DNA from: Eledone cirrhosa | Taxonomy: Eukaryota | Assembly (NCBI GenBank): GCA_964016885.1 | Contig: OZ024741.1 | Span: 144,026,001 to 144,090,000 of the forward strand | Length of the DNA: 64,000 bases | Direction: 5' to 3' | Shown here: positions 57,989 to 60,250 of the stretch, piece after piece | How positions within the stretch are numbered: position 1 is the first letter of the stretch | How the letters are laid out: every line of letters starts with the position of its first letter | Position numbers and translations under genes: made by a program | Notes under the pieces: model-generated | The model's database searches: none | Seen by the model: only the letters and a program-made list of their open reading frames with translations | What the model was told of the DNA's origin: nothing

Positions 57989-58633
57989 GCGGCGATGAAT
58001 TAGTTTTGCGAGGTTTTTTATATGAAATCGTGTGTCGAAACAGATATTGTTATATTTGGGGAGGGTCATATTTGCGTAATATTGCCAGAATTAATAACAG
58101 AACACACTCACTGTTTGGTTGGTTTTCGCTTCTCGCTGTCTTTTATATATATATATCTGCGATCTAACTTACTCGGTCCTCAATGTTGCCATTGACTGAC
58201 CGGCGGTCAAAAATAATACAGATACAATATAGACAAACACATATATATATAGTTTACATAAATCTTTCGTTGCACATCTGCAACATCGTCAGTGGTGTTA
58301 TATTCATTGTTCCTCCTGTTGTGTTGTATGTCCACGCCATTCTTTTGTTCAGTCTGTCTATATATCTATTTATTTATTTGCTTGTTTGTTTATCTTATTT
58401 TATCTTGTCCTCTTTGCGCATGCGTTTGCGTGTGTGTATAGTGTTATGTGTGATGTGTGACTAGTGTGGATAGTGTTGTGTCTGCTGGGTGACTGGTGTG
58501 TGTTTATGTGCTTGTGTATGTATTTATTTATCTTACTCTACTTAATCCAATTCACTTATTTATTTATACTTCTCTTAGGTCAGTGTTGTTTGTTTGGGTG
58601 TTGTTTGTTTGGGTGTTGTTGTTGTTCCACTCA
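57989..58633 (-). mobile_element. Penelope family 1 3' region, copy 1 (with 3' extension; T>C changes only in right half)
   Basis: Reverse complement of 26355-26946 plus ~55-nt extension. Confidence 0.92.
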
Positions 58634-59210
58634 ATGAGTGGAACAACAACAACACCCAAACAAACAACACCGACCCAAGAGAAGTACAAATAAATAAGCA
58701 AATCAAATTAAACAAAATAAGACAAATAAATACATACACAAGCACACAAACACACACCAGTCACCCAGCAGACACAACACTATCCACACCAGTCACACAT
58801 CACACATAACACCATACACACACGCAAACGCATGCGCAAAGAAGACAAAACAAAATAAGATAAACAAACAAGCAAATAAATAAATAAACATATAGACAGA
58901 CCGAACAAAAAAAATGGCGCAGACATACAACACAACAGGAGGAACAACGACCACAACACCACTGACGATGTTGCAGATGTGCAACGAAAGACCCATGCAA
59001 ACCATATATATATGTGTTTGTCCATATTGCATCTGTATCACTTTCGACCGCCGGCCAGTCAATGGCAACATTGAGGACCGAGCAAGTTAGATCGCAGATA
59101 CATATACATAAAAGACAGCGAGAAGCGAAAACCAACCAAACAGCGAGTGTGCTCTGCTATTAATTCCGGCAACACCACGCAAATACGACCCTCCCCAAAT
59201 ATAACAATAT
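58634..59210 (+). mobile_element. Penelope family 1 3' region, copy 2 (inverted partner, T>C hypermutated)
   Basis: Matches 26355-26946 with about 40 T>C changes by manual alignment. Confidence 0.92.
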
Positions 59211-59563
59211 TTATATACATATATATATATATATTTATATACATATATATACATATATTTATATATTCATATACATACATATATATATATATTTATATAC
59301 ATATATATATATATATATTTATATACATATATATATATATATTTATATACATATATATATATATATTTATATACATATATATATATATATATTTATATAC
59401 ATATATATATATATATATATTTATATACATATATATATATATATATATATTTATATACATATATATATATATATACTTATATACATATATATATATATAT
59501 TTATATACATATATATATATATATTTATATACACATACATATACATATATATATATATATATT

Positions 59564-59611
<48 letters not shown>

Positions 59612-59785
59612 CATATATATATATATAAACTTATATACATATATATATATATATAAATCTATATACACATATATATATTTATATACATATATATACATAT
59701 ATTTATATATATATATATATTTATATACATATATATATACATACATATATATATATATATCTATATACATATATATATATATATT

Positions 59786-60250
59786 GGCGATGAATTAGTT
59801 TTGCGAGGTTTTTTATATGAAATCGTGTGTCGAAACAGATATTGTTATATTTGGGGAGGGTCACATTTGCGCAATATTGCCAGAATTAACAACAGAACAC
59901 ACTCACTGCTTGGTTGGTTCTCGCCTCTCGCCGTCCTTTACATATATATATCTGCGATCCAACTCACTCGGTCCTCAATGCTGCCATTGACCGACCGGCG
60001 GTCAAAAACAATACAGATACAATATAGACAAACACACACATATATAGCTCACATAAATCTCTCGTTGCACATCTGCAACATCGTCAGTGGTGTTATATTC
60101 ATTGTTCCTCCTGTTGTGTTGCATGTCTACGCCATTTCTTTTTGTTCAGTCTGTCCACATATTTATTTATTTATTTGCCCGCTCGTTTATCTTACTTTAC
60201 CTTGTCCTCCTTGCGCATGCGTCTGCGCGTGTGTATAGTGTTATGTGTGA
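59786..60250 (-). mobile_element. Penelope family 1 3' region, copy 3 (T>C hypermutated)
   Basis: Matches copy 1 with about 30 or more T>C changes; extension 59786-59845 unchanged. Confidence 0.92.

Follow-up and report, generated by a model that had tools for sequence, protein, structure and literature searches.

One-strand A>G changes in a Penelope-like insertion of Eledone cirrhosa probably record hyperedited RNA written back into the genome

The window analysed here is a stretch of 64,000 nucleotides of the 3.0-Gb Eledone cirrhosa assembly (C2:144,026,001-144,090,000), and all base calls are those of the assembly sequence. At 57989-60377 it contains a compound insertion of a Penelope-like element consisting of four copies, see Table 1. 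Along the minus strand, in the 5' to 3' direction, the order is copy 3 in sense orientation, its tail, a TA spacer of 575 bases, copy 2 in antisense orientation, copy 1 in sense and finally the tail of copy 1. Copies 1 and 2 are joined head to head at an apex (58633) that is unique in the genome, and copy 1 has a 15-base duplication close to it. The two microsatellite flanks match each other, whereas the spacer has a different unit and the opposite polarity. Since the flanks are alike and the spacer is unlike them, the sequence favours a spacer that was carried in together with the copies, the whole being inserted as one unit. A tail identical to that of copy 1 is present on many other insertions of the family, and the tail of Penelope-like elements has been described as the region where reverse transcription starts (PMC11167929). 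By analogy, we infer that the tail of copy 1 corresponds to the start of reverse transcription and thereby to the RNA's 3' end. Copy 4 was probably made at integration; short inverted pieces like it are also found on ordinary insertions of the family.

Table 1. Features of the insertion at 57989-60377 and the reference member of the family in the window (changes are given for the minus strand)
Feature	Position	Strand	Description
Long unedited member (reference)	23040..26946	+	ORF 23045-26410 (RT and C-terminal GIY-YIG) and 3' region
Left half of TA microsatellite target	57686..57988	.	G-only interruptions
Copy 1 tail	57989..58043	-	56-base Penelope-type tail; 0/19 editable sites changed
Copy 1	58044..58633	-	Sense on RNA; A>G at 11 sites within 58333-58553; none in the distal part, 58044-58330
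Putative hammerhead-like core, copy 1	58265..58292	-	CUGANGA, stem II and GAAA; intact
Copy 2	58633..59210	+	Antisense on RNA; 39 A>G of 121, over the whole length
TA-rich spacer	59211..59785	.	575 bases; each of the 34 interruptions is a C; repeat unit differs from that of the flanks
Copy 3 tail	59786..59838	-	54 bases; no partner in copy 2; 0/19 edited
Copy 3	59839..60251	-	Sense on RNA; A>G at 34 of 178 sites; GAAA of the hammerhead-like core altered at 60061
Copy 4	60264..60377	+	Short inverted 3' fragment; 0/29 edited
Right half of target microsatellite	60378..60786	.	Units are those of the left half

The protein of the element has its closest named relative in Octopus vulgaris (69% identity). 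Its single ORF encodes a reverse transcriptase (RT) followed by a C-terminal GIY-YIG endonuclease (EN) with a CCHH motif. In an alignment of 36 proteins Y559, C563, Y575, G577, H606 and H611 are invariant and C568 is nearly so; the cysteines of a CX4CxxC zinc finger in the RT-EN linker (C536, C541, C544) are also invariant. For the window protein, the Pfam RT match is below the cut-off and the GIY-YIG region has no Pfam match. A CX2-5CxxC zinc finger in the RT-EN linker separates Neptune/Nematis from Penelope/Poseidon (PMC8557442), and judged by the sequence criteria of that study the element belongs to the canonical Penelope-like elements with a C-terminal EN (EN+), and within them to the Neptune/Nematis type.

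Tandem pseudo-LTRs, an inverted 5'-truncated copy, an optional tail and a microsatellite target are all seen in the family, and near-symmetric apices are an ordinary insertion product of it, without edits. The family must be young, as an unedited 52-base 3' motif has 4,395 exact copies in the genome. The hammerhead-like core is conserved across subfamilies, has no Rfam match and shows no evident stem I. At C1:14,381,668-14,395,790 (L003-L007), units of about 4.15 kb form a head-to-tail array with the inverted copy last, likely the type of source that gives read-through transcripts. At C1610 (L166 458-684), the 3' end of the family is fused directly to a SINE-like piece, which suggests template switching or mobilisation in trans. 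Within the window, a short degraded head-to-head piece of the same family lies in a TA run at 53292-53420. A nest of single-ORF LINEs with (GAT)n tails, situated in TA microsatellites, is found at 20162-22087, 30744-33866, 36586-39162, 52360-55480 and 60768-63233; the LINE at 30744-33866 has an open frame of 1,040 codons with nuclease, RT and PHD domains.

Substitutions in the four copies were called against the window reference and against L065, an unedited copy of the same subfamily. Relative to L065, 84 of the 85 substitutions are T>C on the plus strand. As copies 1 and 3 lie opposite to copy 2, all 84 are A>G changes of one strand, the minus strand, just as a reading of the bare sequence (the sequence-only reading) had proposed. 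The single exception is an A>C at 58951 in copy 2; copies 1 and 3 with their tails (57989-58633 and 59786-60251) contain T>C changes and nothing else. The earlier estimates of about 40 T>C in copy 2 and some 30 or more in copy 3 agree with the counts in Table 1, but of the two or so other substitutions noticed in copy 2 only the A>C is left. Two candidate sites, 58758 and 58784 (mirrored in copy 1), differ from the window reference and were rejected as edits, being markers of the subfamily whose alleles are found in 15 of the 17 regional loci L065-L081 and also in L082, L086 and L088.

The edited alleles are private. Among 51-82 other aligned arms per site they are absent or almost absent (the exceptions are 7/78 at one site of copy 2, 11/76 at one site of copy 3 and one or two arms at three other sites), and an edited stretch of 48 bases in copy 2 has no second match in the whole 3.0-Gb genome, also when 3 mismatches are allowed. 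An ordinary subfamily was therefore rejected as the explanation of these alleles, and against the family copy L065 the spectrum is not symmetric.

The changes also have a neighbour preference. On the minus strand of copies 2 and 3, adenosines are edited after U in 37/105 cases, after A in 20/85, after C in 12/67 and after G in 1/40, so the avoidance of a 5' G noted earlier holds (1/40 vs 69/257, p=2e-4). It is found at the other edited loci described below as well (14/138 vs 203/789, p=3e-5), and the ranking of the pooled 5' neighbours is the same. A 3' G is enriched at 57989-60377 (17/36 vs 53/261, p=1e-3) and not at the other edited loci (28/132, p=0.58). Depletion of 5' G and enrichment of 3' G make up the ADAR motif (PMC4365171). 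No G>A or C>T was found in the four copies; the APOBEC mark, G>A on the element sense strand, is thus missing. Genes with an adenosine-deaminase domain are present at 4 genomic loci. Together with the pairing described next, the spectrum, polarity and neighbours point to ADAR as the enzyme behind the changes. In the spacer, 18 non-canonical C may be edits too.

Edits were counted at 84 of 463 sites in pairable arms and at 0 of 173 sites without a partner, a split that was drawn after the edit map was known. The extension of copy 3 at 59786 that lacks a partner in copy 2 is untouched (0/19), and all edits of copy 1 are in the apex-side half, two points on which the sequence-only reading was right. 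In the distal half, 0/106 sites are edited in copy 1 and 20/106 in copy 3 (p=7e-7), which argues that it was copy 3 that paired with copy 2 there. In the minimum-energy fold, however, copy 2 has copy 1 as its partner, and copy 3 stays outside. The proposed enrichment of edits in stems is therefore borne out as far as pairable arms are concerned, but not by the minimum-energy fold, which omits an edited copy and is misleading as a test. What the edits record disagrees with the fold at equilibrium, so that kinetics have to be invoked, and agrees with a co-transcriptional pairing of copy 3 with copy 2. In the model, copy 3 and copy 2 would form 411 pairs before copy 1 is transcribed. With 162 apex pairs added, this state equals the alternative in pair count and is predicted to be within 9 kcal/mol of it, each competitor being held single-stranded.

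Copy 1 has five edits in its middle part, which suggests that strand invasion was only partial. Alternatively, distal copy 1 could have been spared by proteins shielding the 3' end or by a template switch; the 3'-most sense part is spared also at C1696, C5 and C3, and it is not spared at C24, C13 and C1:414 Mb. According to the model, copy 4 would be the first partner of copy 3 (110 pairs), yet none of its 29 sites is edited. It can thus be assumed that 60264-60377 was probably absent from the edited RNA, and the earlier claim of a hyperedited fold-back transcript of about 2.3 kb stands apart from this end.

To find other edited loci, the genome was searched with one 34-base probe with 5 forced sites, allowing at most 3 mismatches. 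The T>C form gave 5 matches and the A>G form 9, and 12 of these 14 are within 8 edited loci, 57989-60377 included. A ninth edited locus, at C3:269.82 Mb, came from a junction search and not from the probe. The genome scan for other edited copies that had been advised thus yields 8 further loci. Two probe matches at C5:99.54-99.55 Mb, with 2 A>G each, were dropped. The edited frequency is about 8 per at least 4,395 3' ends, both figures being lower bounds. A C>T control probe gave one match with two changes and no cluster. The 358 matches of a G>A control probe are confounded by a subfamily allele: none of 30 checked was clustered, and visual inspection of the 100 matches listed found the same CpG subfamily allele in 99. 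Another probe, placed on the hammerhead region, required one change only and gave 43 matches, of which the 30 examined contained no new edited locus. An all-against-all screen of the loci analysed (278,767 sites) showed only A>G/T>C clusters, in a sample biased by probe-selected loci. Two further loci are worth mentioning: at C7:46.22 Mb (L174 1274-1912) a copy adjoining an inverted short arm has 5 A>G among 7 changes and is possibly lightly edited, and a microsatellite tail in the C1696 spacer (L111 4617-4830) has an excess of G compared with the window LINE copies, so that AU repeats may be edited there, like those at C1:406 Mb.

In all five loci with opposite, non-identical arms the changes are strand-coherent, with A>G on the strand running toward the 3' end of the retroelement; had the cDNA been deaminated, the polarity would be the opposite one. 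The edits also follow the extent of the pairing partner. At C1696, the upstream copy is edited at 21/124 sites where its inverted partner matches and at 0/351 sites upstream, and at C13 at 10/20 within the limit of the partner and 1/459 beyond it. Copying errors without a deaminase (nucleotide-pool imbalance during reverse transcription, or WA>WG changes of the polymerase-eta type) or a TpA-restricted hypermutation of DNA would not stop at these limits. RT misincorporation does give the same strand polarity, and TA and AA are the contexts most often changed, but sites with a 5' C are edited at 15-18%, so the changes are neither WA- nor TpA-restricted, and they are on one strand only. We found no literature on a TpA hypermutation system, and regard this family of explanations as the least credible of all.

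At C5:90.107-90.110 Mb (L115), an edited insertion and its flank have been tandemly duplicated (about 1.76 kb); the edits are common to both copies, which differ at 2 other sites. This bears on the possibility of an assembly or sequencing artefact, such as base-calling errors in hairpins, polishing with RNA reads or contamination by cDNA. In the raw data, two Hi-C runs gave 0 reads at the window locus, and contig runs gave short unedited pieces that have no bearing on the C alleles. Even though the locus is palindromic and rich in microsatellites, and its C alleles are those of the assembly, an artefact would hardly leave just one substitution other than A>G in about 1.75 kb, a neighbour bias, clean perfect palindromes elsewhere in the assembly, shared edits in the C5 tandem copies and edited daughters with flanks of their own (see below). 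It is very improbable. Presence in the assembly, and the duplication of the C5 copy with its edits, suggest that the edits were transmitted through the germ line.

Sources were found for 2 of the 6 edited loci tested, both on other chromosomes than their daughters. The first is an unedited locus at C2:34.971 Mb, from which the daughter at C24:17.798 Mb differs at 21 positions over 385 bases, all 21 being A>G on the RNA strand. Of the twin at C2:34.97 Mb 521 bases were read, and the end of homology that was mapped is the one on the LINE-tail side. Paired arms are edited at 16/52 sites and the remainder at 5/83, so that 5 of the 21 edits are outside the arm matched by the visible partner, a point against the reading given here. 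The homology runs through a LINE fragment and ends about 15 bases past its (CAT)n tail, and the daughter has flanks of its own.

The second source, at C25:4.147-4.156 Mb (about 9 kb), corresponds to a daughter of about 12.5 kb at C1:406.751-406.764 Mb, with different flanks at both ends; over the 2.7 kb on the 3' side, 28 changes are A>G and 1 is G>A. The edits are in mutually matching Penelope arms (5/46 and 7/30), in TA runs (12/135 and 2/49) and in a pseudo-LTR, the 3' one, that belongs to a second Penelope-like family (12/43 vs 0/1,066 in the unpaired body of that family); no A>G was found in the SINE segment. The inverted partner of this second-family repeat is 25.6 kb upstream in the source, against an expected position downstream, and the identical 5' twin of the edited pseudo-LTR has no edits, which counts against the reading given here. 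The edited arm from outside the family had been considered a MITE, which was rejected in favour of the second-family pseudo-LTR. The second family (L112 458-4259; L001 1053-1383) has the order pseudo-LTR, frameshifted ORF, pseudo-LTR and also makes palindromic insertions. At C1:406.751-406.767 Mb (L112, L240-L244), the transduction spans 9-12 kb and includes a 65-base satellite, a whole second-family member and pieces of SINEs and LINEs. It is joined to a 3.3-kb LINE, and its neighbours on the two sides resemble a 3' end and a 5' end of L1-like elements.

Each of the two daughters stops at a LINE tail or about 100 bases beyond one, and therefore LINE machinery was probably what moved them. The LINE in question has a single ORF with an APE nuclease and an RT, and we take it to be RTE-like. 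With unedited sources elsewhere and daughters that end at a LINE 3' tail, the two sister loci show directly that the edits arose on RNA, which was then retrotransposed. For 57989-60377 itself, searches of the assembly with the apex and the spacer junctions found only the locus and one unrelated locus; of the signs of a retrotransposed copy it has the 3' tail and the split target, and the assembly yielded no unedited source. The retrotransposition of edited RNA that had been proposed for the window is thus documented at its sisters rather than at the locus. Likewise, the window arms are Penelope-like as had been said, but events of this kind are not limited to the machinery of Penelope elements, as both daughters are LINE-ended.

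A missing source could also mean that there never was one, and that two older head-to-head insertions in one microsatellite were changed in place, either by overwriting templated by the edited transcript of the locus itself or through a deaminase whose target was the DNA strand in an R-loop or a hairpin. Copies 1-2 and copies 3-4 each resemble ordinary head-to-head insertions, the unedited copy 4 would be DNA beyond the overwritten tract, and ADARs can deaminate DNA in hybrids (PMC12925331). However, the spacer microsatellite is foreign to both flanks, and the sister loci are transposed copies of unedited sources. Three edited loci have a single arm, without an inverted partner of the edited arm in the 9 kb examined. 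Many equally perfect head-to-head insertions of the family are unedited (L044, L045, L049, L060, L063), showing that inversion alone does not cause the changes. We consider a change in place unlikely.

No source was found in the assembly for C1696, C5:90.11 Mb and C3 either, and C3 has only a sibling. The junction of C3 is present a second time at C1471, there between other flanks and with a 24-base stub whose edit pattern differs (one edit), which demonstrates that a source can be missing from the assembly. At C3:269.818 Mb (L085 3197-3784), the palindromic arms show no difference along 266 bases and have 11 T>C in common, of which one is maybe a subfamily allele. Arms carrying the same 11 changes must both come from one edited template and not from two RNAs. 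In the model of PMC11167929 a predicted dimer extends both strands, and the later steps are left open.

The recurrent C3 junction is also informative about a variant in which a sense-antisense duplex of two molecules was edited and the RT itself made the junction of copies 1 and 2 by a strand turn, such that a source with this apex never existed. Such an origin would agree with the uniqueness of the apex and account for the unedited distal copy 1. The recurrence at a second site with other flanks nevertheless shows that junctions pre-exist in the source RNA, near-symmetric unedited apices are ordinary in the family, and editing of sense-antisense duplexes is reportedly rare (PMC13445718). This variant is even less probable than a change in place.

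We suggest, with a probability of roughly 0.9, that 57989-60377 goes back to a read-through RNA which was hyperedited by ADAR and then entered the genome by reverse transcription. TA microsatellites are the targets of the family, and its insertions often consist of inverted arms placed head to head, which are unedited when made. A transcript would have read through such a source locus, i.e., copy 3, the TA spacer, copy 2 and copy 1. The edit map indicates folding during synthesis, in which copy 3 would pair with copy 2 before copy 1 exists; copy 1 would then pair with the free end of copy 2 and invade only partly. ADAR, as the likely enzyme, would deaminate roughly one in five to one in three of those adenosines that are paired. 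The RT of the element could then prime at the free, unedited tail of copy 1 and read inosine as G. About 2.26 kb would be copied, and integration into a new microsatellite would add the unedited inverted copy 4.

Parts of this scheme have precedents. ADAR-type A>G hypermutation of avian retroviruses (the U3 LTR of Rous-associated virus and an inverted repeat in avian leukosis virus) is cited in PMC12925331. As in these viruses, a long RNA duplex, dense A>G on one strand and fixation by reverse transcription come together here. In contrast to them, the changes are in a non-viral Penelope-like element and in LINE-ended transductions, at 9 loci of an invertebrate assembly, the unedited source is still present for two loci, and non-element flanks and a second family are edited. 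APOBEC editing of LTR retrotransposons consists of G>A made on the cDNA (PMC4866542, PMC2873906) and was absent from 19 invertebrate genomes in a screen aimed at G>A in LTR elements (PMC4866542). The likeness is in clustered monotypic changes that are private to single copies and date to one retrotransposition; the difference is that APOBEC acts independently of pairing, while the changes here are A>G on the strand of the template RNA and depend on pairing. Density, 5' G depletion and an inverted-repeat substrate are shared with hyper-edited RNA clusters (PMC4365171, PMC3197674) and squid editing (PMC4384741), which are, however, differences between RNA and genome, whereas here the G is in the genome. 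The domains, the zinc finger in the linker, the insertions in tandem and inverted form, the optional tail and the microsatellite targets are those of Neptune/Nematis EN+ elements (PMC8557442, PMC11167929), accounts which in the parts available describe no editing of genomic copies; here edits barcode the formation of inverted arms. A model of deaminase-driven reverse transcription, in which ADAR edits enter DNA via reverse transcription, is presented in PMC11817618 as a hypothesis on somatic point mutation in place, and what we describe are new insertions with source-daughter evidence. Our literature search, which covered few subscription journals, turned up no account of Penelope-like or invertebrate copies in a genome in which ADAR-edited RNA had been fixed. 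A parallel is the retroprocessing of C-to-U-edited RNA in plant organelles.

At the level of the sequence, and with unedited sources for comparison, the loci are evidence that an A-to-I edit can turn into an A>G change of the genome, in a lineage known to edit heavily. They date the action of ADAR to RNA in cells that transmit insertions, and the edit maps record the order of folding in vivo. The edits serve as barcodes, and the single template at C3 bears on how Penelope-like elements make inverted copies. Edited copies will bias the dating of repeats and the calling of RNA editing. The change of GAAA to GAGA that had been noted in the hammerhead of copy 3 is found at 60061, and the hammerhead-like GAAA is broken in all three sense arms that are edited across the motif, a hint from sequence of editing-dependent restriction. 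It can be speculated, as a possibility we hold to be rather doubtful, that retroelement RTs in this lineage routinely capture ADAR-edited nuclear RNA, including read-through or intronic transcripts of several kilobases that contain non-element sequence, and thereby make the edits part of the germ-line genome. If true, there would be a standing RNA-to-DNA route of mutation, which disables the hammerhead cores of the elements themselves and could fix recoded host exons in retrocopies.
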